Source of the DNA: Dehalococcoidia bacterium | Lineage (GTDB): Bacteria > Chloroflexota > Dehalococcoidia > SHYD01 | DNA length: 64,000 nt | Assembly (NCBI GenBank): GCA_965226775.1 | Contig: CBDDEI010000002.1 | Location: 653,638-717,637 of the forward strand | Direction of reading: 5' to 3' | Shown: in pieces, positions 1,896-44,401 of the stretch | How the letters are laid out: each line of letters opens with the position of its first letter | Numbering within the stretch: the first letter of the stretch is position 1 | Position numbers and translations under genes: made by a program | The notes under the pieces: generated by a model | Database searches by the model: none | Told to the model about the DNA's origin: nothing | The model's input: only the letters and a program-made list of their open reading frames with translations

Positions 1896-3224
1896 TTAGC
1901 CCTCCTCCTCTCGCCACCTAGCCAGCTCCGCGTCGGGGTCGGCCACGCCGAGCAGGTCCGCCGCGGTGTGGCGAGAGTGGATGCCCGCCGCCACCAGCGC
2001 CGTCTCATCGGCCACCAGGCGGCTGCGGTCTTGCGGCAGCACCGAGCCCCAATTGATGCCCAGTCGCACCGGCCCAAAGCGCTGATCCGTCTTTTGCTCC
2101 AGCACCCGCAGGATCATCTGGTTTCGTTGCCGGTAGGCCGCGCTCCTGATGAGCCGCTTGCGCTTCACCTTCTGCAACAACGGGTGCAGCTCCATCTCCA
2201 ACGCCACGCCGGAGAGCGCTCGGCTGTTGTCGCCAAAGCTGGTGCGGGGCGCTTCCCCCAAGTCGTGGAGCGCCCGGTACAGCAGGTCGATGTAGCTGGT
2301 GTGCAGTTGCACGCCGCCGCCCTGCAGCAGATCCAGGAGGTATGCCTTAGCCCGCTCCGGCAGCTCCCACACCGCGCCTGGCTGCACTGCGATGTCCTGC
2401 GCGTCCTCCACGTTCTCCAGCACGGCAATGGGGTTGCCGGAAAGCTCGAGGATACTGGAAAGCTGGGTGAAGGCTCGGTTCAGCTCCCGGGCCGGCTCCA
2501 TCAAGGGGGCCAGGTCCGACACCCCCCAGAACTGCTTGGCCTCCCTTAGGTTGGGGAAGACCACAAAGGGGATGAAGCCGTAAGGGTTGGCCTTGGACTC
2601 CAGCAGCTCCCCCTCCAGCCAGAGCTGGAAGGCGTCTGCCGTCCACACCTCCGTAACGGCGTAGCTCTGCTTCTGCTGCCGAGCGCCCCGCGTCCTGCCT
2701 GCGGCCAGCGCCTGCGCGCCGTACAGCGCTGCCGCTTCTTCTGCGCTCAACGCGTACCGGCTGGCCACGCGCCACAGCCGGCCGGGGTCGTCGCCCCACC
2801 ACCAGACGTAGAGGCCCTGCACGTCCGGCGCGGTAACCCGCACCCGGCCTTGCGCCGGGTCCCAGGTCACTTTGAAGCAGCCGTCGCCCAGGATGGCGGT
2901 ATCCACCTCCGTGTCGAAGTCCAACTGCGCCAGGCCGTTGGCATCGTAGACCTGCGCCAGCGCGCGCTCCGCCTTGGTCGCCGCCTCGGCTGCCTCCGGC
3001 GAGGTCTCCCACGCCTCCGCGGTGTAGGTCACCTCGCTCATAAGATAAGAGGTAGCCTTCTCGACGAGCACCTTGGCGTAGTTGAAGGTGAGACGGCGCT
3101 CCCTGCGCCACGCCCGGCCCTGCCACTGCGCGCCTCGGTAGAACTCCAGGTGTTCTCTGTAGCGCCGGAACCGTTCCTGATCCATGCGGGCGAGTTGCTG
3201 TGGAAAGGGTGCTGTTTGTTCCAT
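1896..3224 (-). CDS. Phage portal protein (SPP1 Gp6-like family)
   Basis: 442 aa with a portal-family conserved core (…SSILELSGNPIAVLENVEDAQ…). Immediately downstream of terminase genes. Confidence 0.8.
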   Translation of the reverse strand: MEQTAPFPQQLARMDQERFRRYREHLEFYRGAQWQGRAWRRERRLTFNYAKVLVEKATSYLMSEVTYTAEAWETSPEAAEAATKAERALAQVYDANGLAQLDFDTEVDTAILGDGCFKVTWDPAQGRVRVTAPDVQGLYVWWWGDDPGRLWRVASRYALSAEEAAALYGAQALAAGRTRGARQQKQSYAVTEVWTADAFQLWLEGELLESKANPYGFIPFVVFPNLREAKQFWGVSDLAPLMEPARELNRAFTQLSSILELSGNPIAVLENVEDAQDIAVQPGAVWELPERAKAYLLDLLQGGGVQLHTSYIDLLYRALHDLGEAPRTSFGDNSRALSGVALEMELHPLLQKVKRKRLIRSAAYRQRNQMILRVLEQKTDQRFGPVRLGINWGSVLPQDRSRLVADETALVAAGIHSRHTAADLLGVADPDAELARWREEEG

Positions 3225-3322
3225 AAAGAAGTTACTCCTCTTGTATCATCCCAACCCCCGCAAAGGGGTTTGAGGTAACCTACGGGTTCATCAATGAGTT
3301 CAGGGGGACTCCCCCGTGATGC

Positions 3323-3637
3323 CTATTGCTGACCCTGCCCTCGCATGCGGGCCACCGCACGGTGCACTGTGCGACGGCTCACGCCAAAGCGCTCCGCCAG
3401 CGCGTGGATGTCCGGCCCCCGCTCCAGGTACAGCCGGTAGATCTCCTTGTCCCGCTCCTCCTGCGCCTGCCGTCGCTCCTCCTCTGGCTCATCGTAGATG
3501 CACTTCGCCAGCGGACATCGCAGGCAGGAGGGTGATACCTCGCACCCGGTATCCGGGAAGTAATCCTCGCTCGGCTCCCGGTCCACCAGCGGCAGCCGGC
3601 GCTTCTTGCTGTAAAGCTCTGTTCGTAACCCTGTCAT
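3323..3637 (-). CDS. Small Zn-ribbon + C-terminal HTH DNA-binding protein (possible phage regulator or terminase small-subunit-like)
   Basis: 104 aa with four Cys (CEVSPSCLRCPLAKC) followed by a sigma-70 region-4-like HTH (IHALAERFGVSRRTVHRAV). Sits between TerL and portal. Confidence 0.5.
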   Translation of the reverse strand: MTGLRTELYSKKRRLPLVDREPSEDYFPDTGCEVSPSCLRCPLAKCIYDEPEEERRQAQEERDKEIYRLYLERGPDIHALAERFGVSRRTVHRAVARMRGQGQQ

Positions 3638-3651
3638 TGACCGTCCCCCAC

Positions 3652-5025
3652 TTACGCATTGCTGTAACTCCGACCTCTCGCACTCCGGGGCTGGTACATA
3701 CTCGCCGCCTCCAGGGTGAGCGCTAAGCTCATCAGGTAATCGTCATGGCCGTCCCGCTCCTTCACGTAGAATTGCATCCGTTGGTTGGATCGATACTCTC
3801 CTTGCGCCCGCTGCAACTGCCGCCACAGCTCCCCACACTCCTCGGTGCCGTCCGGCGCATACAGCTTCAGGCGATGCAGGTTGGCTGCCGCCAGCAGCGC
3901 GAAGCCCAGGCGTGACTTGCTCTCCGCACTGAACACAAAGGGGTGCGCTACGGCCGCGCCCAGCAGTCGCTGGAGCATGCTGGCGATGCCTTGGCCCAGG
4001 CCCGTGGCGTCTACTAGCACGCGACGGCAATGCCAGGTGCGCCCCAGTAGGCCCGACAGCTCGCCGATGAGCGACGCGTGGTCGCGGCCGCTCCAGCGCG
4101 CGTGTTCCACCACCTCGACTCGTGGCGCGGGCACCAGTGACGGCTCATCGCTGGGCATCACCCGCGCGATGGTCGCCACTGTGGCATCGTGTTCCCGCGC
4201 TCCTTCGCCCTCTCCCGCGCCGCCGCCAATATCGACGCCCGCCACGTAGACGGCGCCGTCGGGCGCGTGCAGCCGGGGGTGGTCACCCTGCAACCACGCC
4301 AGCTGTTGCGCGCTGAACAGCCCGAGGCCGCCGTGGAGCGGCTCCAGGCAGTACTGCGTGCGGAACAGGGGATGGTTGCTCCCCAACCGCGCCTCTTCGC
4401 CTGCTACGTAGACGCCATAGTTGGGGTTGTGTCGTGCCACTTCTTGCCAGTCGTAGTGGAAATGGCGTTGTATGCCATCCTTCCGCTCTAGCTCCAGGTT
4501 CACCTGTTTCTGCTGCTCCAGCAGCGACTCGCCGTCCCAGGGCGTGCCGTATAGCACGGTAGTGGCGTTGGCGCTGGCCCCCATGGGCCGGAACTCCTTC
4601 TGATACTTCTCCGGGTCCACGTCCTGGGCCTCGTCCACCTCCAGCAGCAGGTCGGCGGTCGCGCCCACCACGTTGGCCGACGGTTCCGCGCTGTAGAAGC
4701 GTTGCTGCGCCCGGCCCAGCCGCACCAGGTAGCCGTGCTCCGTGCGGACGTGGTCGCCGTAGCCCGCTTCCGACAAGCGAGCCCGCAGCCGCTCCATACT
4801 GATGAGCGCCTGAGGGGCAAAGGTGGGCGCGCACTTCACGCCGCTCCCGCCCTTGAGCATGTGGAGGGTCAGCAGCAAGGTCTCCAGCTGTGCCGAGAGT
4901 TCGTTCTTGCCTCCCTGCCGGGCGATCTCCACGGTGAAGGTAAGGCCGTTGCGGTTCAGCACGCTGTCCAGCACCGCCCGCCCGACCTCTACCTGGTACG
5001 GCCGCAATTTACGCATCACAGCCAC
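3652..5025 (-). CDS. terL: Phage terminase large subunit
   Basis: 457 aa with an N-terminal ATPase (Walker A-like GGKN, Walker B LLEVDEAQD) and a C-terminal RNaseH-like nuclease with acidic residues (VAGVDIGGG, HDDY). Confidence 0.85.
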   Translation of the reverse strand: MAVMRKLRPYQVEVGRAVLDSVLNRNGLTFTVEIARQGGKNELSAQLETLLLTLHMLKGGSGVKCAPTFAPQALISMERLRARLSEAGYGDHVRTEHGYLVRLGRAQQRFYSAEPSANVVGATADLLLEVDEAQDVDPEKYQKEFRPMGASANATTVLYGTPWDGESLLEQQKQVNLELERKDGIQRHFHYDWQEVARHNPNYGVYVAGEEARLGSNHPLFRTQYCLEPLHGGLGLFSAQQLAWLQGDHPRLHAPDGAVYVAGVDIGGGAGEGEGAREHDATVATIARVMPSDEPSLVPAPRVEVVEHARWSGRDHASLIGELSGLLGRTWHCRRVLVDATGLGQGIASMLQRLLGAAVAHPFVFSAESKSRLGFALLAAANLHRLKLYAPDGTEECGELWRQLQRAQGEYRSNQRMQFYVKERDGHDDYLMSLALTLEAASMYQPRSARGRSYSNA

Positions 5026-5123
5026 GCACTACCCACGGCTCAATCCGTCCAGGGTGAGCGAATGATCCGATTGAGAAAAATGGTGAGTCAGGTGTTGATT
5101 GAAATGCTTCCACAAACCGGTCC

Positions 5124-5357
5124 TCATGCCATACCCGACCATTTCAACAGCAGCTGCGTCAGCACCGCGCCCGCCACTAAATAGAGCAGCCCGTTGATGC
5201 GGCTCCGCACCTCTGCCATCTCCCGCTCCAGTGCCGCCAAGCGCGCCGCCAGCTCTATCGCCGACACCACGGCGCTTGGAGCAGCAGCCGGAGCGTGATT
5301 GCCCGCCGCGCGCGACCGCTGTAGCAACGACCGCAGCGCGCGGGTGAACTCATCCAC
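5124..5357 (-). CDS. Small phage-associated protein with coiled-coil and C-terminal transmembrane helix
   Basis: The GTG start overlaps the stop of the upstream gene (GTGGATGA coupling). C-terminal hydrophobic helix LLYLVAGAVLTQLLL. Confidence 0.4.
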   Translation of the reverse strand: MDEFTRALRSLLQRSRAAGNHAPAAAPSAVVSAIELAARLAALEREMAEVRSRINGLLYLVAGAVLTQLLLKWSGMA

Positions 5358-5706
5358 GGGAATCTTCCTCCGGCAGCAGCAACTCGCCGACACCCTTCAG
5401 CACACCCACCGCGCTCTGAAAGAGATCGTCCTCACTCTTGCCGCTGATGCGATAGCGCGCCGCCACCGCGCGCACTAACAGCTCCATGCCCCGCAGGATC
5501 ACGGGCATGTCATCCGGGTGCTGTGCCAGGCTGCTGTACAGCTTCACCCGTAAGACCGCGATCTCCTCGTCCAGTCCCTCCACCGCTCGTGCGGGACCTA
5601 ACGCCGCTTGCTCGGCTTCCTGGAGCGCGGTGGTGTAAAAGTCTCGAGCGACTTTACGGGTCCGCCGCCGTTTTACTGGATGGACTCGCTCCGGTTCCTT
5701 AGTCAT
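5350..5706 (-). CDS. Hypothetical phage-associated protein (118 aa)
   Basis: In-frame ATG at 5706 overlaps the stop of the preceding small gene (ATGACTAA). The N-terminal extension offered by the ORF track (to 5757) is Arg/Cys-rich and unlikely to be real. Confidence 0.45.
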   Translation of the reverse strand: MTKEPERVHPVKRRRTRKVARDFYTTALQEAEQAALGPARAVEGLDEEIAVLRVKLYSSLAQHPDDMPVILRGMELLVRAVAARYRISGKSEDDLFQSAVGVLKGVGELLLPEEDSRG

Positions 5707-5845
5707 GCGGCTCCTCGAGCAGTGCCAGGATCTCCGGCAGAGTGTCCGGCACCGCATCCTCCAAGGTTCGTAGCAGGCCCAACGCGAGCAACAGCGCCAC
5801 CAGCTCCCATTGCTCCTGTTTGATAGCTTGTTCCAATGTGCTCAT
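5699..5845 (-). CDS. Small hypothetical protein (48 aa), translationally coupled
   Basis: Not in the ORF track (too short). ATG preceded by AGGAGG. The start overlaps the stop of the 5842-6144 gene (ATGA). Acidic, helical sequence. Confidence 0.4.
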   Translation of the reverse strand: MSTLEQAIKQEQWELVALLLALGLLRTLEDAVPDTLPEILALLEEPHD

Positions 5846-6144
5846 GCCTTGCCTCCTGTGAGTCGAACCAGCAGTCGCTGCACTACCGCCAGCGCAATCG
5901 CCAGGCTCCCTAACGCGACCATGCCTTGGGCTAGCGCAGCCGTTTCCGGCGACGGTTCAGCGCCGCGCCAGAGACTTACCCCGTGCACAACGCTCTGGGC
6001 CAACGTCCCGCCGCACACCAGCGCGAGAATGTTTGCGCTTCTGCGCCGCCGGTGTCCTAGGGGGCGGATCGTGGCAAAGTAGGCTGCGTTGCCCGCGCTG
6101 GCAAGCGTAGTGATAGCGTGTAAAATCAGCAGTCCTTCTGTCAC
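5842..6144 (-). CDS. Small membrane protein (3 predicted TM segments; holin-like?)
   Basis: 100 aa, hydrophobic. First gene of the coupled small-gene string upstream of terL. Confidence 0.4.
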   Translation of the reverse strand: MTEGLLILHAITTLASAGNAAYFATIRPLGHRRRRSANILALVCGGTLAQSVVHGVSLWRGAEPSPETAALAQGMVALGSLAIALAVVQRLLVRLTGGKA

Positions 6145-6330
6145 CGTGCTCCTCTACTGGCCGGGCTGTCCCCGCCCTCATTCAGTACCGCCACTCAACA
6201 ACTTCCTACCGCGGGGCAAGGCTCAGCCCGACCAGTGAAGTAAAAATAGAATAAACGTTCTAATTTAGTCAAGACAAATGGCACAGATGTAACCGTTGTC
6301 ATTACGAGAAGAGTGGGGAGTGCGTCGGGC

Positions 6331-7217
6331 GTGGCAGCCACCCCCGCTCGTGGTGAGCTAGTCGAACCAGGAGCAGGTGCGCGGGCCTCTGTCATTGCGA
6401 GGACTCGCCCTAAGGCGAGGCCGTGGCAATCTGGGGCGGGGGAGGAGGCGTTGCCCGTAGCCTGCGCGTGGGACACTCCCCGACACCGTGCCTCCCCGCC
6501 TCCCCAGATTGCTTCGCTCCTGCGTCGCTCCTCGCAAAGACGGGCTCACCATGAGCGGAGCGGGCAGCGTACCCCCGCTCATGGTGAGCTAGTCGAACCA
6601 GGAGCAGGCGCTGGGCCTCTGTCGTTGCGAGGACTCACCCTAGGCGAGGCCGTGGCAATCTGGGGCGGGGAGGAGCGCCGTTGCCCGTTGGCCTGCGCGT
6701 GGGACTGCTCCCCGACACCGTGCCTCCCGGCCTCCCCAGATTCGCTTCGTCACTCCTGCGTCGCTCCTCGCATGGTTCGACGGGCTGCGGAGCGGAGCGG
6801 GCAGCCACCCCCGCTCATGGTGAGCTAGTCGAACCAGGAGCAGGCGCGCGGGCCTCTGTCGTTGCGAGGACTCGCCCTAGGCGAGGCCGTGGCAATCTGG
6901 GGCGGGGGAGGCGCCGTTGCCCGTTGGCCTGCGCGTGGGATGCTCCCCGACACCGTGCCTCCCCGCCTCCCCAGATTGCTTCGTCACTCCTGCGTCGCTC
7001 CTCGCAAAGACAGTGTGGAGCGGTATGGCAGCCACCCCCGCTCGTGGTGAGCTAGTCGAACCAGGAGCAGGACTCGCCCTGTAGGCGAGGCCGTGGCAAT
7101 CTGGGGCGGGGGAGGAGGCGTTGTCCGTTGGCCTGCGCGTGGGATGCTCCCCGACACCGTGCCTCACCCACCTCACCGATTGCTTCGTCGAACTCCTGCG
7201 TCGCTCCTCGCAAAGAC
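6331..7217. repeat. Tandem direct repeat, ~230-bp unit, about 4 copies (last copy internally deleted), with nested inverted repeats
   Basis: Unit starts (cccccgctcRtggtgagctagtcgaacc) at 6341, 6572, 6808 and 7035, giving spacings of 231, 236 and 227 bp. Within a unit, ttgcgaggactcg pairs with cgtcgctcctcgcaa, and gcaatctggggcgggggagg pairs with cctccccgcctccccagattgc. ORFs across the array shift frame between copies, so it is non-coding. Confidence 0.9.
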
Positions 7218-7359
7218 AGTGCTGGGGTGGTAGGGTGGCCAGCCCTCCGCAGCCAGCATCTTGCCTCCCGCACGCCTGCAGTGTAGAGTGCGTTGAGCAA
7301 CAGCTTCGGTGGTCGAGCCTGCCGAGAGCACCGAGGCTTAATGAAAAGATGCGTTTAGC

Positions 7360-7953
7360 ATGACCACTGCAAACCTGAACCGCTGCCCCTGGCCCGGCGC
7401 CGATCCCCTCATGCAGGCCTATCATGATCAGGAGTGGGGTGTGCCCGTCCATGACGACCGTAAACACTTCGAGTTCCTGGTGCTGGACGGCATGCAGGCA
7501 GGGTTAAGCTGGCAAACTATCCTCCGCAAGCGCGAGAACTTTCGTCGAGCCTTCGACGGCTTCGATCCCGCGGTTGTGGCCCGCTATGGAGATAGTGAGG
7601 TCGAGCGCCTCCTCTCCGACGCCGGGATTGTGCGCAACCGCCTCAAGGTCCACGCAGCCATAACAAACGCTCAGTGGCTGCAGGAAACCCAGGCGGAGTT
7701 CGGCTCCTTCGATGCTTATATCTGGCGCTTTGTAGATGGCCGCACCATCCTCCACCAGCGACGCGCACTTACCGACCTTCCCGCTACCTCTCCCGAGTCC
7801 GACGCCATGAGCAAGGACCTGGTGCGCCGCGGCTTCAAGTTCGTGGGCTCCACCATCTGCTACGCCTACATGCAGGCCGCGGGTATGATCAACGACCATG
7901 TGGTCGACTGCTTCCGCTACGATGAGCTGGCGCAGGCGGGAGCTCACTCGTGA
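7360..7953 (+). CDS. tag: DNA-3-methyladenine glycosylase I
   Basis: 197 aa with Tag family motifs (CPW…DQEWGVPVHDD…LDGMQAGLSW; Zn-binding C/H pattern). Confidence 0.85.
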   Translation: MTTANLNRCPWPGADPLMQAYHDQEWGVPVHDDRKHFEFLVLDGMQAGLSWQTILRKRENFRRAFDGFDPAVVARYGDSEVERLLSDAGIVRNRLKVHAAITNAQWLQETQAEFGSFDAYIWRFVDGRTILHQRRALTDLPATSPESDAMSKDLVRRGFKFVGSTICYAYMQAAGMINDHVVDCFRYDELAQAGAHS

Positions 7954-8561
7954 ACCGCCGCACCGACGACCTTTACGAGCGCGCTGGGCGGCTCCACGCC
8001 GTTCTTGGCGCAGCGCTAGGGGTGGACAGGAGCACAGCGCCCACACGACTGCGCGCTGACCTCAAGTGGTTGGAGTTCTTTCAGGAGTCTGGCGCGCCGG
8101 TCTCGGACGAGGACCTCGAGAGCCTGGCGGTGCCCCTTATCCAAGCCCTGGCAGACCTCCGGGAGGAAGCGGCCGCGTGGCTCACTACGCATGGACAGGA
8201 CTCGGCCCAGGTGGACGCACTCATCGCGGCGCATGCGCCCGTAGCAATCCTCCAAGACCTGGCCTATCTCAATAGGTACGGCGCGCCTCCCAGAGATGGC
8301 GGGCTCTCCGGCAAAGCGCCCCGGCTTACGCACTTCCGCAGGATGATGCAGCCCGGTTCGGGGTCCCACAACACCTCGGTGACCTACGTCTTCGCCCCCT
8401 CCGGTGGGCCGCCGCTGGCCGGCGCAGGCTCGGAGCACACCACGGTCACCGCAGACGTGGTGGATAGCGATGGCGTGAAGCTGGGCGACCTGCGGGAGCT
8501 GGAGCTGGCTGCTTTGACCGAGTGGGAAGCATTCTTCCGCTCTCTGGGCGTGATCCACTAG
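7950..8561 (+). CDS. Hypothetical protein (203 aa), translationally coupled between tag and radC
   Basis: The GTG start overlaps the tag stop (GTGA). Protein-like composition. The antisense ORF 8016-8618 is Arg-rich junk. Confidence 0.55.
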
Positions 8562-16618: not shown

Positions 16619-17542
16619 CTAGGGTGTAGTAGCCGGAATGATGAGCTCTTCTCCCACCCTGAGGAGTGTGGGGTCCGTTATGTCGTTGGCAGCGACGATG
16701 GCCTCGACGGTCACCCCGAAGCTGGCCGCAATTGCGTTCACACTATCGCCAGCCTGCACCACGTAGCGCCGTGTGGTTAGGGTAGGTGTCGGCGCAAGCT
16801 GGGAAGCAGCCGTGGCCGTGGCCGGAATGATGAGCTCTTCTCCCACCCCGATGAGTGCGGGGTCTGTAATGTCGTTGGCATCGATGATGGCGTCGGCAGT
16901 CACCCCGAAGCTGGCCGCAATGGTGCTCAGATTATCGCCATCCTGCACCACGTAGCGTCGCGTGGTTCGGGTAGGTGTTGGCGCAAGCGCAGCCGTGGCC
17001 GGAATGATGAGCTCTGCGCCCACCCTAATGAGTGCGGGGTCTGCAATGTCGTTGGCAACGATGATGACCTCGACGGTCACCCCGAAGCTGGCCGCAATGG
17101 TGTTCAGATTATCGCCACTCTGCACCACGTAGCGCAGCGTGGTCGGGGTAGGTGTTGACGTAGGCGTAGGCAAGGGAGCAGGCGTGGCCGCGGCCGTAGG
17201 CGCAGCTGTAGCAGTGGCTGTAGCCGTAGCTGCCACGGTAGGCGCTGGTGTAGGCTCCACTGGCGTGACATCCAGTACGTTGGTTTCCGCCGCCGCCAGC
17301 GCCGCGAGGATCCGTGGCTCCGGTAAGGGAAACTGTGGCCAGGCCCACAGGTGCCAGCCGGCCAGCCCCAGTGCCACTACCAGCGTGCCCAGCACCCCAC
17401 GGTACACCAGTCCGGAGGGATAGCCGCCCGGCAGGTCCCGGCATCGGTCACAGCGGCCCTCTCCGTGACGCGCGCAGAACCACTGCTGGCAGCTTTTGCA
17501 CTGGTCTAAGGCTTCTTCAGAGCAGGCGTAGCAGTGCTGCAT
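16619..17542 (-). CDS. Zn-ribbon / single-TM / triple LysM-domain protein
   Basis: The N-terminal CxxC…CxxC ribbon is followed by a TM helix and three ~45-aa LysM repeats (RYVVQSGDNLNTIAASFGV…), also visible as DNA repeats. The start is chosen at the ATG with a GAGGT RBS (the ORF track extends to 17590). Confidence 0.7.
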   Translation of the reverse strand: MQHCYACSEEALDQCKSCQQWFCARHGEGRCDRCRDLPGGYPSGLVYRGVLGTLVVALGLAGWHLWAWPQFPLPEPRILAALAAAETNVLDVTPVEPTPAPTVAATATATATAAPTAAATPAPLPTPTSTPTPTTLRYVVQSGDNLNTIAASFGVTVEVIIVANDIADPALIRVGAELIIPATAALAPTPTRTTRRYVVQDGDNLSTIAASFGVTADAIIDANDITDPALIGVGEELIIPATATAASQLAPTPTLTTRRYVVQAGDSVNAIAASFGVTVEAIVAANDITDPTLLRVGEELIIPATTP

Positions 17543-17596
17543 TAGCGTATTACCTCGCCGCGTAGTAAGCGGTAAGATGTAACAAGACACGTCTTT

Positions 17597-30608: not shown

Positions 30609-30621
30609 CCTTCCCGATTGT

Positions 30622-31370
30622 CCTCAACTCCAAGGTGGCATAGACCTCAAATGAGGCGAGGACAGAAGAAGCTGGCTGGGAGCAGTACCGCTCGCTTACG
30701 CTCCACGTAGCTCAGGGTTCCCACCCTGGGCGATTTTTATTCGCAAGCTGCTTAGAAATTCACCCCCACATTGTGGTGGAGAGGCCAATCCCTTCCCCCT
30801 CGATGGGGGAAGGCTAGGATGGGGGTGACTGAAGCGTACCCCTCTGCCCAAGGATTCTCAACGGAATTATAAAGCGTTCTCAACTCCAAGGCGGCATAAA
30901 CCTCAAACGAGGCAAGGACAGAAGAAGCTGGCTGGGAGGAGTACCGCTCGCTTACGCACCACTTAGCTCAGGGTTCCCATGCAGTGGGCGATTTTTATTC
31001 GCAAGCTGCTCGCAAATTCACCCCCATCCTAACCTTCCCCCATCAAGGGGGAAGGAATGGTTTTCTCCCCCCTAGTTGGGAAGAGCTGGGGGGTGACTGA
31101 AGCGTACCCTTCTTCCTAATGATTCTCAAAGGCAGCTAAGCGTTTCTCTAGGGCTAGAGCAGCAGAGACTTCAAACAACGCCTGCTGGATAGGATCCGTG
31201 ACCTCGACTACACGTACCTCATTTCCCTAACGCGCTCTTTTGCGTCTCAATAAAGCAAGCGAAACTCAAACATCTTGAAGAAGCTTCCTAGGCACAGTCG
31301 AGAAGAAAATCCCTTCCCCCTCGATGGGGGAAGGCTAGGATGGGGGTGACTGAAGCTACCCCTCTGCCCG
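30622..31370. repeat. Tandem direct repeat, ~257-bp unit, two full copies plus a distal partial copy, carrying palindromes
   Basis: Copies start at 30622 and 30879 (ctcaactccaagg…). The partial copy at ~31305-31370 repeats cccttccccctcgatgggggaaggctaggatgggggtgactgaagc. Palindrome cccttcccccTCGAtgggggaagg. ORF-free, ~52% GC. Confidence 0.85.
30711..30742 (+). terminator. Candidate intrinsic terminator downstream of the ACIII operon (also present in repeat copy 2 in degraded form)
   Basis: Stem cagggt/accctg with a 4-nt loop, followed within 5 nt by ATTTTTATT, ~110 nt after the actE stop. Confidence 0.35.
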
Positions 31371-36049: not shown

Positions 36050-36262
36050 CCGCTCGTAGTGAGCTAGTCCAAGGGCTCCCGCTCATGGTGAGCTAGTCGA
36101 ATCCATGTGGATTCGCTCCTAGTGAGCCTGTCCAAGGTGTTCGTAGGGGCGGGTTTGAAACCCGCCCCTACTGTCAACTATCCAAGGGACTTCCGCTCGT
36201 GGTGAGCCTGTCCAAGGGCTTCCGCTCGTGGTGAGCTAGTCGAATCCATGAGCAGAAAGTTG
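36050..36262. repeat. Cluster of five ~30-bp degenerate direct repeats (cgctcRtRgtgagcYWgtcSaa…) with embedded palindromes. Same motif family as the 6331-7217 array
   Basis: Units at ~36051, 36080, 36112, 36196 and 36225. Perfect 12-bp-arm palindrome aggggcgggttt/aaacccgcccct at 36145-36169. Hairpin cgaatcca-tg-tggattcg at 36107-36124. Confidence 0.8.
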
Positions 36263-36376: not shown

Positions 36377-37321
36377 ATGACAACCGAAGCAAAGACTCTT
36401 ACACTCAAGACCGCTATAGGCAGTTATGGGCACACCGCCGCCTTGAAAGACGGAAGCGTGACAGCCAAGGGTGTTCAGCTCGACCACATTGAAGTGACGC
36501 CGATTACGAGCGCCTTTCGTCGCATGTGCCGCGCCGTGGAGTTCGACATCTGTGAGATGGCAATCACCACTTATCTGGCGGCAAAGGCCCACAACTTGCC
36601 CTTTACGGCGCTGCCGGTCTTTCCCGTCAGAGCGTTCCATCACGGGGGCGTGATCTACAACCAGAAGTCTGGCATCAAGACCCCCAAGGACTTAGAGGGC
36701 CGCAGAGTGGGCGTACGCGCATACACGGTAACCACCGGCGTGTGGGTCAGGGGCGTCCTCGCCACCGAGTATGGGGTCGACCTGGACAAGGTCACCTGGG
36801 TGATTGTGGATGAAGAGCACGTGGCCGAATTCATGGTGCCTTCAAACGTGGTCATGGAGCAGAAACCGCTCATGGACATGCTTGTTGCCGGCGAGATTGA
36901 CGCCGCCATCGGCATTGGCGCTTCTGATTCACCAGACATCATGCCGCTGAACCCTGGCGCCCGTCAGGCCGAAGAGGAGTGGTACAAGCGCACGAACATC
37001 TTCCCTATCAACCACACGGTAGTGGTCAAGAACGATCTCCTAGCCGCAGAGCCGTGGCTGGCGGCGGAGCTCTATGCGGCCTTCAAAGAGGCCAAGGATG
37101 GCTTTGTGGCCCGCATCAGCGCCGAAGCAGATCCCTCTGCTGAGGCCAAAACGGTCCTGGCCCGGCGCGCGCTCGTCGGCCCAGACCCGTTGCCCTACGG
37201 TGTGGCGGCCAACAAGCCGGCTATCGATGCCATCATCCAGATGGCTACTGCTCAGCACATCCTCCCGCCTCAGTTTAGTGCGGAAGAGGTTTTTGTGCCC
37301 AGCACCGTGATGTTGGCCTAA
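36377..37321 (+). CDS. NMT1/THI5-like (SsuA/PhnD-type periplasmic-binding-fold) protein without signal peptide. This family is often annotated '4,5-dihydroxyphthalate decarboxylase'
   Basis: ATG at 36377 with a GGAGGAGG RBS (the ORF track starts upstream at 36293). 314 aa, no signal peptide. Confidence 0.55.
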   Translation: MTTEAKTLTLKTAIGSYGHTAALKDGSVTAKGVQLDHIEVTPITSAFRRMCRAVEFDICEMAITTYLAAKAHNLPFTALPVFPVRAFHHGGVIYNQKSGIKTPKDLEGRRVGVRAYTVTTGVWVRGVLATEYGVDLDKVTWVIVDEEHVAEFMVPSNVVMEQKPLMDMLVAGEIDAAIGIGASDSPDIMPLNPGARQAEEEWYKRTNIFPINHTVVVKNDLLAAEPWLAAELYAAFKEAKDGFVARISAEADPSAEAKTVLARRALVGPDPLPYGVAANKPAIDAIIQMATAQHILPPQFSAEEVFVPSTVMLA

Positions 37322-42823: not shown

Positions 42824-44401
42824 CTACTGTTCTACCCTGATGCGCCCGTTTTCGTACACTAGTACCTGGCCTGGCTGCACCGCAAGACGCGCCGCCCAGT
42901 GGTCGTCACCTAGTAGCTCCGCCTCCGCGGGCAAGCCCTGTACCAAGGCAAAGACGCTGGGGTCGGTGAAGACGGCCCATTCCACACCCTCCGGCACGAC
43001 GACTCGCTGTGTCTTGGCGCTCTGCGTATAGACCCGCGCCAGATGGGGATACTCGGGCAGATAGTAGCGGAAGCGTGTGTGGCTATCGTTGCTTAGCACC
43101 AGCACTTCTGGAGGCTCATACGTGCTTAGGTAGCTCAACGTAGCGCCGGTGGCGCGGTCGCTGGCGCGCAGGCCGGACAGCGTGAGCGGTTGCTCGAAGA
43201 GAAAGAAGAGGAAGGCGTTGGTCATGAGCACAAGCGCGAAGCCGCTGACGACCAGCGAGAGCGTCTGCTCGCTGCGCTGCTGCAACCAGCGGCTCCACCC
43301 ACCGATGCCCAGTAGCAGGACCGGCGGAAGCAGGCTAAAGGCGTTGCCGGGGTCGCCAATGTGGACAAAGATGTAGAAGAGGCCCATAGGAGCGCCCCAT
43401 GCCGCCAGGAACAGATAGAACCACAGATCTCTGCCCGCAGGCCGCTTCCAGATGAGCAACAACAGCCCAGTAACCACCACCAGCGCTTCGGCATAGAGCG
43501 CATAGAACAGGTAGGTCGCGCTAGCCTGCACGTTTACCATCAGCCCGCCGCTCCCCAGCGCCGCAGGCGCGTAGCTGACGCTATCGGCCCCTCCCAAGTA
43601 GGCGTTCACCGCCGCCAAGTAACTCCCTAAACCGCCCGACGCGTAGCTAACGTTAGCGGCCACGCTCAAGTGGGCGTTCAGCGTCGCCCAGTAACTCCCG
43701 GGACCGCCCGAGAGCAGCACGGTCGGGATGAGCCAGGCCAGCACGCCCACAACGGCGATAGCCAGCGCCGTCACTACGCGCAGCGGCGGCTGCCGCCAGC
43801 ACGCTATGACCAGCAGCGGCAGCAGGAAGAGCGCTAAGTTGGGGTGAAAGCCCGTCCCAACGGCATAAGTCAGCGCGCAGGCGAACAGGCGAGGTCGCTC
43901 CAGAAAAGCGGTCTGGTAAGCAAAATACGCGGTCAGCGCACCAAATGCGGCCAGCGCAGGGTAGGCCAGCGCGACCTCTCCGTAGTACCAGAAGCTCACG
44001 CTGGCCGCTAAGAGCAGCCCTGCCGCCAATCCAGCGCTTTCTGAGAAGACAAGCGAGGCAAAGCGGTAGAGCGCCACTACCGCTACCACTTCCAGCAGCA
44101 CGCTGACCGTGACCAGCGCGGCGTTGGCATCGCCAAAGATCAGGTTGAGCAGCGCGCCCAGGCCCACAAAGTAGGGGAAACCTGGCGGATAGGGTTGCTG
44201 CAACCCAACATTGAAGAGTTGGGTGCCCAGGGCAAAGTTGGCGGCGTCCCAGTTGTAGAGATAGCTAGTACGGAAGGGCCAGCGACTCAGCAGCACCAGA
44301 AATGCTAACAGGAGCGGCGCCCATACTCCCGATGAGATCAGTGGCAGGAGTGTTGTTCCGCCGGCACGCGGGGTGTTCTGGGATGCGGAGGATGCTTGCA
44401 C
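42824..44401 (-). CDS. Large polytopic membrane protein, putative GT-C-type glycosyl/mannosyltransferase (ArnT/PMT-like)
   Basis: 525 aa with more than 12 TM helices and an N-terminal loop containing a conserved-looking acidic/aromatic patch (RWPFRTSYLYNWDAANF). The assignment is tentative. Confidence 0.4.
   Translation of the reverse strand: MQASSASQNTPRAGGTTLLPLISSGVWAPLLLAFLVLLSRWPFRTSYLYNWDAANFALGTQLFNVGLQQPYPPGFPYFVGLGALLNLIFGDANAALVTVSVLLEVVAVVALYRFASLVFSESAGLAAGLLLAASVSFWYYGEVALAYPALAAFGALTAYFAYQTAFLERPRLFACALTYAVGTGFHPNLALFLLPLLVIACWRQPPLRVVTALAIAVVGVLAWLIPTVLLSGGPGSYWATLNAHLSVAANVSYASGGLGSYLAAVNAYLGGADSVSYAPAALGSGGLMVNVQASATYLFYALYAEALVVVTGLLLLIWKRPAGRDLWFYLFLAAWGAPMGLFYIFVHIGDPGNAFSLLPPVLLLGIGGWSRWLQQRSEQTLSLVVSGFALVLMTNAFLFFLFEQPLTLSGLRASDRATGATLSYLSTYEPPEVLVLSNDSHTRFRYYLPEYPHLARVYTQSAKTQRVVVPEGVEWAVFTDPSVFALVQGLPAEAELLGDDHWAARLAVQPGQVLVYENGRIRVEQ

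Follow-up and report, generated by a model that had tools for sequence, protein, structure and literature searches.

The closest described systems to the locus analysed here are the REPs and BIMEs of Enterobacteria and Pseudomonas (PMC3333891, PMC2817692, PMC3733652), the REPINs (PMC3116915), the Rickettsia palindromic elements (RPE), the pneumococcal BOX elements and MITEs (PMC10969869), and the bacterial VNTRs or minisatellites. REPs are extragenic and dispersed and exceed 100 copies per genome (PMC2817692); those associated with RAYT carry a GTAG or CGTC tetranucleotide at one end, and REP clusters are repeated in tandem along with the DNA beside them (PMC3733652), while REPINs are defined by their link to RAYT and by their population structure within a genome (PMC3116915). 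Clusters of palindromes that expand and contract are already known for intergenic polymorphism and spurious gene calls, and in this respect the tandem array found in the window (the whole stretch of DNA analysed, 64 kb) is an ordinary object. Its building blocks belong to a very widespread modular hairpin family that is absent from Rfam and for which no description by sequence was found in the searchable literature; searches with sequence words returned primer coincidences only, with no description of the arm family by sequence, and keyword searches returned general REP, MITE and RPE papers only. The array is likely to be the tandem amplification, in varying copy number, of a composite about 230 bp long in which selfish palindromic DNA modules are joined, and to be neither a gene nor a conserved RNA; it is probably built from phage-borne mobile palindromes of the REP/BIME/RPE-like type.

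The array occupies positions 6333..7230 (no strand; Tandem Repeats Finder, repeat families and alignments), about 900 bp in total, and consists, by alignment, of four head-to-tail composite units of 227-236 bp each, u1 (6333-6563), u2 (6564-6799), u3 (6800-7026) and u4 (7027-7230), in the last of which a 25-nt deletion has taken out the left outer arm. Tandem Repeats Finder reports a single array at 6333-7071 (period 236, 3.2 copies, 88% matches, score 1141), in agreement with the roughly four tandem copies of about 230 bp described in the initial annotation. The unit starts are spaced by 231, 236 and 227 bp, two of these three values not being multiples of 3, and Pfam gave no match for any ORF spanning the array; the array is tandem and non-coding, as had been proposed. 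Upstream lies a prophage remnant (1896..6144, minus strand; Pfam, PHROG) with a portal of the SPP1 type (1896-3224, minus; Pfam SPP1_portal 2e-21, PHROG portal 4e-31), a terminase-like ORF (3652-5025, minus; weak PHROG TerL match, 2e-4) and several small ORFs (5124-6144, minus), and no capsid or tail genes were found in this remnant; downstream lie tag and radC, so that the position first given for the array, between a cryptic prophage and tag, is correct. Looking up the Tag protein by its exact sequence returned nothing on record. The array stands between two divergent promoter-like sites, TTGACT-18-TATTTT at the left border (6243..6272, minus), which faces the remnant genes (5842-6144, minus), and TTGCCT-17-TAGAGT at the right border (7261..7289, plus; read from the sequence), which faces tag and belongs to a block conserved as a flank motif in 13 of 13 syntenic loci. 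Within the array, neither a consensus plus-strand promoter nor a terminator was found.

Rather than a single element, the 230-bp unit is a composite that joins a 33-nt hairpin (module A) to a 155-nt hairpin (module B). Module A is imperfect in the array (CCGCTCGTGGT-GAGCTAGTCGA-ACCAGGAGCAGG in copy 1, 6344..6376, plus; copies 2-4 at 6575-6607, 6811-6843 and 7038-7070; all by pattern search), with a stem of 11 bp, and its canonical perfect-palindrome form, CCGCTCGTGGTGAGCTTGTCGAACCACGAGCGG, was found in the unrelated metagenome loci L067 and L079. Some units read A - B - A', the last being an inverted partial module A: GACGGGCTCACCATGAGCGG stands at the end of unit 1 (6539..6558, minus; inverted repeat) and TGGTTCGACGGGCT follows the right outer arm of unit 2 (6773-6786; inverted repeats and alignment), and a full A' is seen in unit 3 of L006 and in the units of L146. 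Searching the window for the 5' module CCGCTCRTGGTGAGCTAGTCGAA at up to three mismatches gave eight matches against 0 expected, four inside the array and four at 36050-36244, which confirms the earlier remark that this module recurs far away. Module A is accordingly present at two loci of the window, the array and 36.05-36.25 kb, where it stands without module B; this second cluster (36050..36250, plus; pattern search and repeat families) comprises five copies of module-A-type repeats, and a 58-nt block is duplicated there on both sides of a GTAG-tagged REP-like hairpin, GTAGGGGCGGGTTTGAAACCCGCCCCTAC (36143-36171).

Module B is an inverted doublet of two different arms of about 40 nt, both of the GTCATTGCGAG...GAAGCAATC type, with a GC-rich spacer between them. 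Both of the nested inverted-repeat pairs noted at the outset are present, the outer being CTGTCRTTGCGAGGA / TCCTCGCAAAGACAG and the inner GCAATCTGGGG(CG)GGGGAGG / CCTCCCC(GCCT)CCCCAGATTGC, which encloses a loop of about 46 nt. In unit 1 (6389..6541, no strand; inverted repeats and fold), the left arm reads TGTCATTGCGAGG-[CTCGCC..GGCGAG]-CCGTGGCAATCTGGGG and the right arm CCCCAGATTGCTTCG..CTCCTCGCAAAGAC, with the GC-rich stem extension and the loop between them. The copy in unit 2 (6619..6773, no strand; inverted repeats and alignment) has its right outer arm cut down to TCCTCGCA, that in unit 3 (6856..7013, no strand; inverted repeats and fold) is the best preserved, with outer stems at 6856-6870 / 6999-7013 and inner stems at 6892-6908 / 6963-6979, and that in unit 4 (7071..7219, no strand; alignment) is decayed, its left outer arm being deleted and its right inner arm mutated (CCTCACCCACCTCACCGATTGC). 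The initial annotation considered the element far larger than a REP or MITE core, which is misleading, since the unit is made of a 33-nt hairpin and two arms of REP size that are found independently in hundreds of unrelated loci.

Whole units and sub-modules are gained and lost among strains whose flanks are 95-99.8% identical. Across 13 syntenic loci, the window included, the arrays measure 328-1175 bp from one conserved flank to the other (the flanks in the syntenic genomes being 95.2-98.8% identical to the window) and hold one to five copies of module A and one to four full B hairpins. Between L142 and L143 the difference amounts to precisely one unit, of 189 bp, and the two neighbouring hairpins of L142 are identical; the arrays of L142 and L144 are rearranged though their flanks are 99.85% identical. 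Indel lengths between strains do not keep to multiples of 3. Some small indels may be errors, since a number of the assemblies compared consist of long-read contigs with low coverage (3x-15x). The copy number is therefore polymorphic, from 1 to 5 units between near-identical flanks, as in a VNTR, and the description of the array as a satellite-like repeat is apt.

The arms of module B are independent self-complementary modules, which occur as singlets, as head-to-head or tail-to-tail doublets and as clusters, the single arm being the basic hairpin. They are 30-45 nt long and closed by ATTGC/GCAAT, with closing pairs that covary in three forms (ATT[GC]..[GC]AAT 49, ATT[CT]..[AG]AAT 15, CC/GG 2, mixed 1, the one mixed combination, CT..GC, spanning two adjacent arms). 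The pattern TGTCRTTGCGAG-N5-35-GCAATCTGGGG matched at least 120 metagenome loci and, among the matches listed, 34 of the 102 untruncated distinct copies have a matching right arm, giving doublets of 93-150 nt. These doublets join an alpha arm (..GAAGCAATC) to a beta arm (..GTGGCAATC) in inverted orientation, with a predominance of GAA/CAC and GTG/TTC combinations (alpha = GAA, beta = GTG), and the 12-mer ends TGTCATTGCGAG ... CTCGCAATGACA form the terminal inverted repeats of the 34 full doublets. The orientation of the elements relative to flanking long ORFs showed no clear bias at the metagenome loci, in a small sample with crude ORF calls. Among genome contigs searched with the inner-stem pattern, the Dehalococcoidia MAG L004 carries a canonical element upstream of radC, its RadC being 71% identical to that of the window; the second match, in L005, was rejected as a chance match. 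An alpha arm 100% identical over 32 nt is found between convergent genes on a plasmid of Methylosinus trichosporium, and the alpha arm is also found on plasmids of Methylocystis, Nostocales, Novosphingobium, Halomonas and Legionella; plasmid BLAST with the whole array as query gave no match. Distant bacterial phyla, plasmids and phages have the arm family in common, nearly unchanged in sequence, and the arms may be termed mobile only in the sense of this distribution and of their insertion polymorphism.

The link with phages is pronounced. The arm-only pattern matched at least 120 IMG/VR viral loci, for which the eight matches of a looser viral pattern (TTGCGAG-N-GCAATCTGGGG), all rejected as chance-like, provide a rough internal control. 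About 40 of the arm-bearing viral contigs listed encode a portal 47-61% identical to that of the prophage remnant in the window, and a portal homologue was found in none of 120 arm-bearing metagenome loci, among the matches listed. In the related phages, the arms lie at gene boundaries with a density of 0.45 per kb, and singlets are co-oriented with the genes (78 vs 19); tandem doublets and clusters are present, and tail-to-tail doublets, with the 'termini' inward, also occur. Arms are found inside portal genes as well, as in-frame insertions of two to three arms in L156, L190, L216, L238 and L261, the orthologous site being empty in L187 and L159. In the phage contig L206, four copies of the 12-mer TGTCATTGCGA(G) follow one another with a 21-bp period between two doublets, indicating that the 12-mer half-site can stand alone, in 21-bp phased arrays. 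Phasing at 21 bp, two turns of the helix, is typical of protein-binding arrays. An ORF of 1158-1187 aa flanked by arms in phage contigs received no annotation from Pfam or PHROG.

The strand bias and the phased half-sites in phages suggest a strand-specific or protein-binding role for the arms over pure selfishness. A broader reading along these lines, unlikely as it stands, is that the GTCATTGCGAG...GAAGCAATC arms may constitute an undescribed class of phage-vectored mobile or regulatory miniature DNA spread across phyla, whose conserved 12-mer and hairpin would be recognised by a putative protein, possibly from the phage lineage with the SPP1-type portal, the array in the window then being what such a phage left behind, with a function in protein binding or as an insulator. 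Such a class would explain the strand bias, the 21-bp phased half-sites and the in-frame portal insertions, as well as why Alphaproteobacteria, Cyanobacteria and the lineage of the window, which may be Chloroflexota, have identical 32-mers.

The array might, more narrowly, be a functional cis-acting site of the (pro)phage itself, that is, a protein-binding array such as a pac/cos-type terminase region, a set of operator or 'stoperator'-like sites or the target of a Mor-type activator, with the copies in hosts as leftovers. This is quite unlikely, although the array directly precedes the packaging module of the remnant (small ORFs, TerL-like ORF and portal), and the density of arms in homologous phages, their position at gene boundaries, their co-orientation with transcription and the two-turn period in L206 are all in agreement with it. 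The arms are found in many non-phage settings, such as between convergent metabolic genes on the Methylosinus plasmid, the portal is missing from the 120 metagenome loci listed, and arms also lie within the portal coding sequence. L149 and L200 encode homologues of o135, TerL and the portal in the same order as the window, but no arm was found in the roughly 700-880 bp upstream of o135/TerL in either, so that the position of the array is not one that the phages conserve. Furthermore, a packaging site would serve nothing in a remnant that lacks capsid and tail genes.

The proposal of the initial annotation that the array consists of structured RNAs, either a tandem array of sRNAs or a long structured leader of tag with functional nested stems, is very unlikely. 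The predicted fold of the 160-nt hairpin on the plus strand is indeed very stable (-88.5 kcal/mol, z = -4.95, with none of 200 shuffles as good), the GTG/TTC junction pairs on that strand as G-U wobbles, not as A-C mismatches, and the coding-strand bias of singlet arms in related phages would fit a role at the RNA level. However, the minus strand folds equally well (z = -4.85), so that stability is found on each strand, and the hairpin is a DNA palindrome with no strand preference in folding. No compensatory change was found in 37 pairs among 22 distinct units from 11 genomes, where the paired fraction and the covariation score equal the shuffle expectation and the substitutions mostly break pairs; the covariation check suggested earlier lends the structure no support. 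Rfam likewise held nothing relevant: cmscan gave no match in the window at the gathering score, only weak generic matches at the locus at E<=10, nearly all of them to microRNA-precursor hairpin families, and a single, unrelated TPP riboswitch (in L072) among 15 loci with canonical elements. The lack of compensatory changes, the strand-equal folding and the absence of an Rfam family together indicate that there is no selection for RNA structure. The gain and loss of units and sub-modules among strains with near-identical flanks, the lack of an internal consensus plus-strand promoter or terminator, and the conserved promoter-like site that tag has for itself downstream of the array also argue against this proposal.

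It is highly improbable that module B is a classical MITE, that is, a deletion derivative of an IS with the 12-bp terminal inverted repeats TGTCATTGCGAG/CTCGCAATGACA, mobilised in trans by a DDE transposase and then duplicated in tandem. The conserved and perfectly inverted 12-mer ends, set against a highly variable interior, the size of 93-150 bp and the wide dispersal are those expected of such an element, but direct repeats of 2 nt or more are lacking at the borders of 25 of the 35 full doublets and the remainder are at chance level, so that no target-site duplication is seen, and no consistent dinucleotide was found at the borders of the 35 doublets. In addition, single arms and isolated half-sites are common and act as independent units, and tail-to-tail doublets carry the 'termini' inward. 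An autonomous IS with such ends was not encountered at any of the loci retrieved. No transposase, RAYT/Y1 or other, was found between paired arms at six metagenome loci, where the ORFs, judged by eye, were MerR-type HTH-like, pilin-like or unremarkable.

A repeat-protein gene (ORFs 6313-6828, plus, or 6877-7467, minus) or an assembly artefact is scarcely conceivable. ORFs that run across the array were predicted automatically in related assemblies (P0001 and P0002), and both predictions already stand in public protein collections. The reading frame, however, changes from unit to unit, Pfam has no match, the only two 'homologues' in the databases turn out to be this array in sister genomes, the strains differ by indels that do not keep to multiples of 3, and the array was recovered from 12 further independent assemblies besides the window, 13 in all, and is therefore not an artefact. 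A CRISPR was also rejected, in line with the initial annotation, because the whole 230-bp unit is repeated, without unique spacers.

The variable-number amplification of palindromic modules, as the preferred reading, would have proceeded from a unit formed by a REP-like 33-nt hairpin and an inverted doublet with arms of the GTCATTGCGAG-x-GAAGCAATC / GTGGCAATC family, the modules presumably having come in with the phage of the remnant. Modules repeated in the same direction would recombine unequally, or slip during replication, and so let the array grow and shrink, probably with microhomology deletions as well; the array probably has no dedicated cellular function, although four strong palindromes between divergent promoters could serve as a supercoil sink or a transcriptional insulator. 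The locus would make a good strain-typing marker for this uncultured lineage, and the array is a warning to pipelines for the discovery of RNA motifs and ORFs. One phage lineage shows a strong enrichment of the arm family, whose presence within a portal gene is tolerated, and what moves or binds the arms bears on the spread of non-coding DNA between hosts by phages.

In comparison with known systems, the arms and module A are palindromes of the REP type, and the doublets and clusters show the alternation of BIMEs. As in REPs and BIMEs (PMC3333891, PMC2817692, PMC3733652), the palindromes are imperfect, 30-45 nt long and intergenic, alpha and beta arms take turns in opposite orientations, joined by linkers, as the Y and Z REPs do in BIMEs, singlets, head-to-head and tail-to-tail dimers and larger clusters are found, and they are a source of polymorphism between strains; the array likewise repeats clusters in tandem together with flanking DNA. 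The differences are that the arms begin with (T)GTCATTGCGAG, i.e. TGTC, without a GTAG or CGTC head, the only GTAG-tagged hairpin being the unrelated one at 36143-36171; that within these 64 kb of the genome the arms are confined to the array and are not high-copy; that no RAYT was seen in the loci inspected; that the arm sequence is common to phyla and phages, whereas REP families are normally species-specific; and that the BIME-2 motif is smaller than a unit of about 230 bp with three nested hairpins. Module B resembles REPINs (PMC3116915) as an inverted doublet of short palindromic arms that can form one long hairpin, with about one third of the arm family members being doublets and the rest singlets among the copies listed, and differs from them in its long spacer, which separates the inner GCAATCTGGGG/CCCCAGATTGC stems by about 85 nt when the GC-rich extension is counted. 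With RPE (PMC10969869), the arm family shares insertion both in frame within genes and between genes, as doublets or triplets at one site of phage portal genes, a behaviour seen in the family and not in the array itself; RPE are about 150 bp long and restricted to Rickettsia, whereas the arms are 30-45 nt, modular and found in several phyla. The likeness drawn here is one of behaviour. BOX elements and MITEs (PMC10969869) are likewise modular (A/B/C-type boxes), with a variable number of internal modules, hairpin-forming, non-autonomous and intergenic, but the modules here move or recombine independently, with no target-site duplication seen and no known parent IS. Finally, the array is like a bacterial VNTR or minisatellite in its head-to-tail arrangement and in a copy number that differs between near-identical strains, and unlike one in that its unit is put together, as a mosaic, from mobile palindromes that are dispersed and is not specific to the locus.

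The repeat array is non-coding and composite. A single array is reported by Tandem Repeats Finder at 6333-7071 (period 236, 3.2 copies, 88% matches, score 1141), and four head-to-tail units are resolved by repeat families and MAFFT alignment, u1 (6333-6563), u2 (6564-6799), u3 (6800-7026) and u4 (7027-7230), with start-to-start spacings of 231, 236 and 227 bp, in agreement with the four or so tandem copies proposed in the initial annotation; u4 has a 25-nt deletion that includes the left outer arm. Both nested inverted-repeat pairs described there are also present, the outer as CTGTCRTTGCGAGGA / TCCTCGCAAAGACAG and the inner as GCAATCTGGGG..GGGGAGG / CCTCCCC..CCCCAGATTGC, enclosing a loop of about 46 nt (about 45 nt had been claimed), and for unit 3 the 160-nt hairpin has a folding energy of -88.5 kcal/mol (z = -4.95 vs dinucleotide shuffles). 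The position assigned to the array, between a cryptic prophage and the tag operon, holds as well: on one side lies a prophage remnant on the minus strand, with an SPP1-type portal (1896-3224), a terminase-like ORF (3652-5025) and small ORFs up to 6144, and on the other tag-orf203-radC, the two gene sets being divergent. Promoter-like sites face left (6272-6243) and towards tag (TTGCCT-17-TAGAGT, 7261-7289), the latter read from the sequence and kept in all relatives; no terminator-like site was found at the array locus. The orf203 gene (7950-8561), located between tag and radC, overlaps the tag stop codon and is lineage-restricted (one 90% cluster of 18 members; a search of 5.8 billion clusters gave no further homologue at E<=1e-10), and it has no match in Pfam or PHROG.

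Each unit combines two kinds of hairpin. The first, module A (CCGCTCRTGGTGAGCTAGTCGAACCAGGAGCAGG), is a degenerate version of a 33-nt hairpin whose canonical form, CCGCTCGTGGT-GAGCTTGTCGA-ACCACGAGCGG, is present in unrelated metagenome contigs, and its inverted copy, A', closes some units to give A-B-A' (u1 and, in part, u2 in the window, and, in syntenic sister loci, unit 3 of L006 and most units of L146). The second, module B, pairs two unlike arms as an inverted doublet, the left being TGTCRTTGCGAGG-[small hairpin CTCGCC/GGCGAG]-CCGTGGCAATCTGGGG and the right, on the other strand, TGTCTTTGCGAGGAGCGACGCAGGAGTGACGAAGCAATCTGGGG. The recurrence of the 5' module 29 kb away was borne out by eight matches in the window vs none expected, four of them at 36050-36244; at 36050-36250, upstream of an ORF starting at 36378, a GTAG-tagged REP-like hairpin, GTAGGGGCGGGTTTGAAACCCGCCCCTAC (36143-36171), is set among five module-A-type 23-mers, with a 58-nt block duplicated on each side of the hairpin, and module B is absent from this cluster. 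Elsewhere in the window, a composite intergenic repeat at 30620-31370 contains two tandem copies, 78% identical, of a unit of about 256 bp; in addition, a 74-nt module (ATCCCTTCCCCCTCGATGGGGGAAGGCTAGGATGGGGGTGACTGAAGC...) occurs three times in direct orientation, its palindromic core aligning inverted as well. Mosaic repeats have thus been duplicated locally in tandem at more than the 6.3-kb locus alone. Two further repeats were observed, one of 177-189 bp at 16629-17196 (about three copies, 82-89% identical), which lies inside an ORF on the minus strand (16619-17590) and is probably a coding repeat, and one of 72 bp at 43568-43711 (two copies, 81% identical).

The copy number of the array is variable between strains. 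Two sister loci were found by a protein-collection search with the translated spurious ORF across the array, and ten more via the lineage-specific orf203; all share synteny, with flanks 95.2-98.8% identical to those of the window. Across the 13 loci the span between conserved flanks is 328, 441, 442, 559, 587, 657, 664, 682, 682, 871, 969 (window), 992 and 1175 bp, module A being present in 1-5 copies and full B hairpins numbering 1-4 per locus. Units differ in whether they retain module A or have lost it by excision at a GCTCG microhomology, in the presence or absence of the 'TTCGCTTCGCTCAGAATGACAAAGGGGGA' arm (CT subtype), and in that of the inverted A'. The difference between L142 and L143 is exactly one 189-bp unit, two adjacent hairpins of L142 are identical, and L142 and L144, from one sample, have flanks 99.85% identical and rearranged arrays. 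Compared with the window, the arrays of L006 and L007 are 87% and 79% identical, with many gaps, vs 98% and 95% for their flanks. Several contigs are low-coverage long-read assemblies, in which some small indels may be errors, and whole-unit differences also occur between high-coverage and circular assemblies.

The modules belong to a widespread, insertion-polymorphic and phage-enriched family, whose basic hairpin unit is the single arm. The pattern TGTCRTTGCGAG-N5-35-GCAATCTGGGG matched at least 120 metagenome loci; in the matches listed, the two conserved blocks enclose a stretch that varies greatly and is usually itself a small palindrome (CCCCGAT/ATCGGGG, GCTGAC/GTCAGC, CCTTCC/GGAAGG or a GCGAAGC motif). 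A matching right partner, giving doublets of 93-150 nt, accompanies 34 of the 102 untruncated distinct copies, the others being singlets or fused to other modules. The doublets are asymmetric, GAA/CAC and GTG/TTC junctions dominating, and thus join one alpha (GAA-type) and one beta (GTG-type) arm in inverted orientation, recalling the Y and Z REPs of BIMEs. Among arms other than those selected by the scan, the closing pairs are ATT[GC]..[GC]AAT (49), ATT[CT]..[AG]AAT (15) and CC..GG (2), and the sole mixed combination (CT..GC) spans two neighbouring arms. An 85-nt canonical doublet (L136, 1500-1585) corresponds to the Methylosinus trichosporium OB3b plasmid pOB3b1 (NZ_CP023738.1, ~100183-100268), between convergent genes for a methyltransferase and a PfaD-family protein, and its alpha arm matches, at 100% identity over 32 nt, a consensus alpha-arm query compiled from the metagenome copies, in the form that L050 carries. 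Further copies of the arm are found in plasmids of Methylocystis, Calothrix, Aulosira, Tolypothrix, Trichormus, Novosphingobium, Halomonas and Legionella, in no case within an annotated feature; no Rfam family matched these elements, and sequence words retrieved no description of the arm family in the literature searched. In a Dehalococcoidia MAG (L004, OZ253478.1, 7720-8000), a canonical doublet, at which the locus ends, lies upstream of a homologue of radC, whose product is 71% identical in amino acids to the window RadC, and beside palindromic G/C-rich segments (e.g. ccccttccttctaggaaggggg) that we take to be common dispersed modules.

In IMG/VR, an arm-only pattern matched at least 120 viral loci; with a looser pattern used earlier, there were only 8 matches, all chance-like. 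About 40 of the 120 viral loci among the matches listed carry a portal 47-61% identical to that of the window (52%, E = 1e-173, for L187), and two also encode, with gene order kept, homologues of both the terminase-like ORF (52%) and ORF 5350-5757, vs none of the 120 metagenome loci among the matches listed. The arm-bearing portal contigs are real phages that possess portal, scaffold-like and capsid genes, and hold up to 11 arms per 12 kb, mainly at gene boundaries. Two or three arms lie in-frame within the portal genes of L156 (3942-5264), L216 (7455-8777), L238 (570-1904), L190 (50-1348) and L261 (330-1721), all at one site between 'LYG' and 'VTELWT' ('...LYG NEIATPSARNDSPFVSLRGAEHRSNLVK VTELWT...'), which is empty ('...LYG VAITKKAAT ITELWT...') in L187 (6762-8027) and L159 (6355-7614), a direct insertion polymorphism. 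The window portal has 11 extra residues at this site (~2660-2715, minus), which may be a decayed arm. Within the 64-kb window, arms are confined to the array, right beside the prophage remnant, which suggests that the modules were imported by phage; the array probably grew, and shrinks, by unequal recombination or slippage between direct repeats. An ORF of 1158-1187 aa, divergent from the portal operon and without a match in Pfam or PHROG, has arms on both sides in arm-rich phages (L187, 1865-5341, minus; L206, 6999-10562, plus) and is a candidate partner of the elements.

The array probably has no dedicated function. A protein-binding or RNA-level role appears unlikely, the observations in its favour being two features of the phages, a strand bias and a 21-bp phased array of 12-mer half-sites in L206. 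In the portal-bearing viral loci among L148-L267, singlet arms share the strand of the portal gene in 78 cases and lie opposite to it in 19 (binomial p ~1e-9, with counts that are not phylogenetically independent), and arms within doublets are balanced (24 vs 22). In L206 (10740-10990, minus), two doublets flank four bare half-sites, TGTCATTGCGA(G), with a period of 21 nt, or two helical turns, adjoined by a 14-nt repeat (GCTGATTACTGACT x3.5), an arrangement resembling an array of protein-binding sites or an origin-like region. For the array of structured RNAs envisaged in the initial annotation no support was found: for 22 distinct units, 89.8% of cells form pairs of the nested structure, with no compensatory double change and a covariation score of 0.045 vs 0.045 in shuffles, and most departures disrupt pairing, a ten-unit set giving the same outcome. 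The two strands fold alike as RNA (z of -4.95 vs -4.85), which, together with a DNA-fold z of -5.48, is what a DNA palindrome predicts, and a selected RNA structure is not supported. Nor does the array fit the MITEs, as no target-site duplication was found at arm doublets.

In summary, the locus is ordinary in kind, an array of mosaic palindromic repeats that vary in number. The hairpin modules from which it is built form an unusually promiscuous family associated with phages. The array is not assigned to the RAYT-type REPs: its arms have no GTAG/CGTC head, a RAYT was not seen, and within the 64 kb covered the arms show no high copy number. The in-frame phage-portal arms resemble the Rickettsia palindromic elements (PMC10969869), and such RPE-like in-frame palindromes, together with REPIN doublets (PMC3116915), are also close; tandem reiteration of REP clusters along with the DNA beside them has been described (PMC3733652), and the closest known kinds are the REP/BIME clusters (PMC3733652, PMC3333891, PMC2817692).
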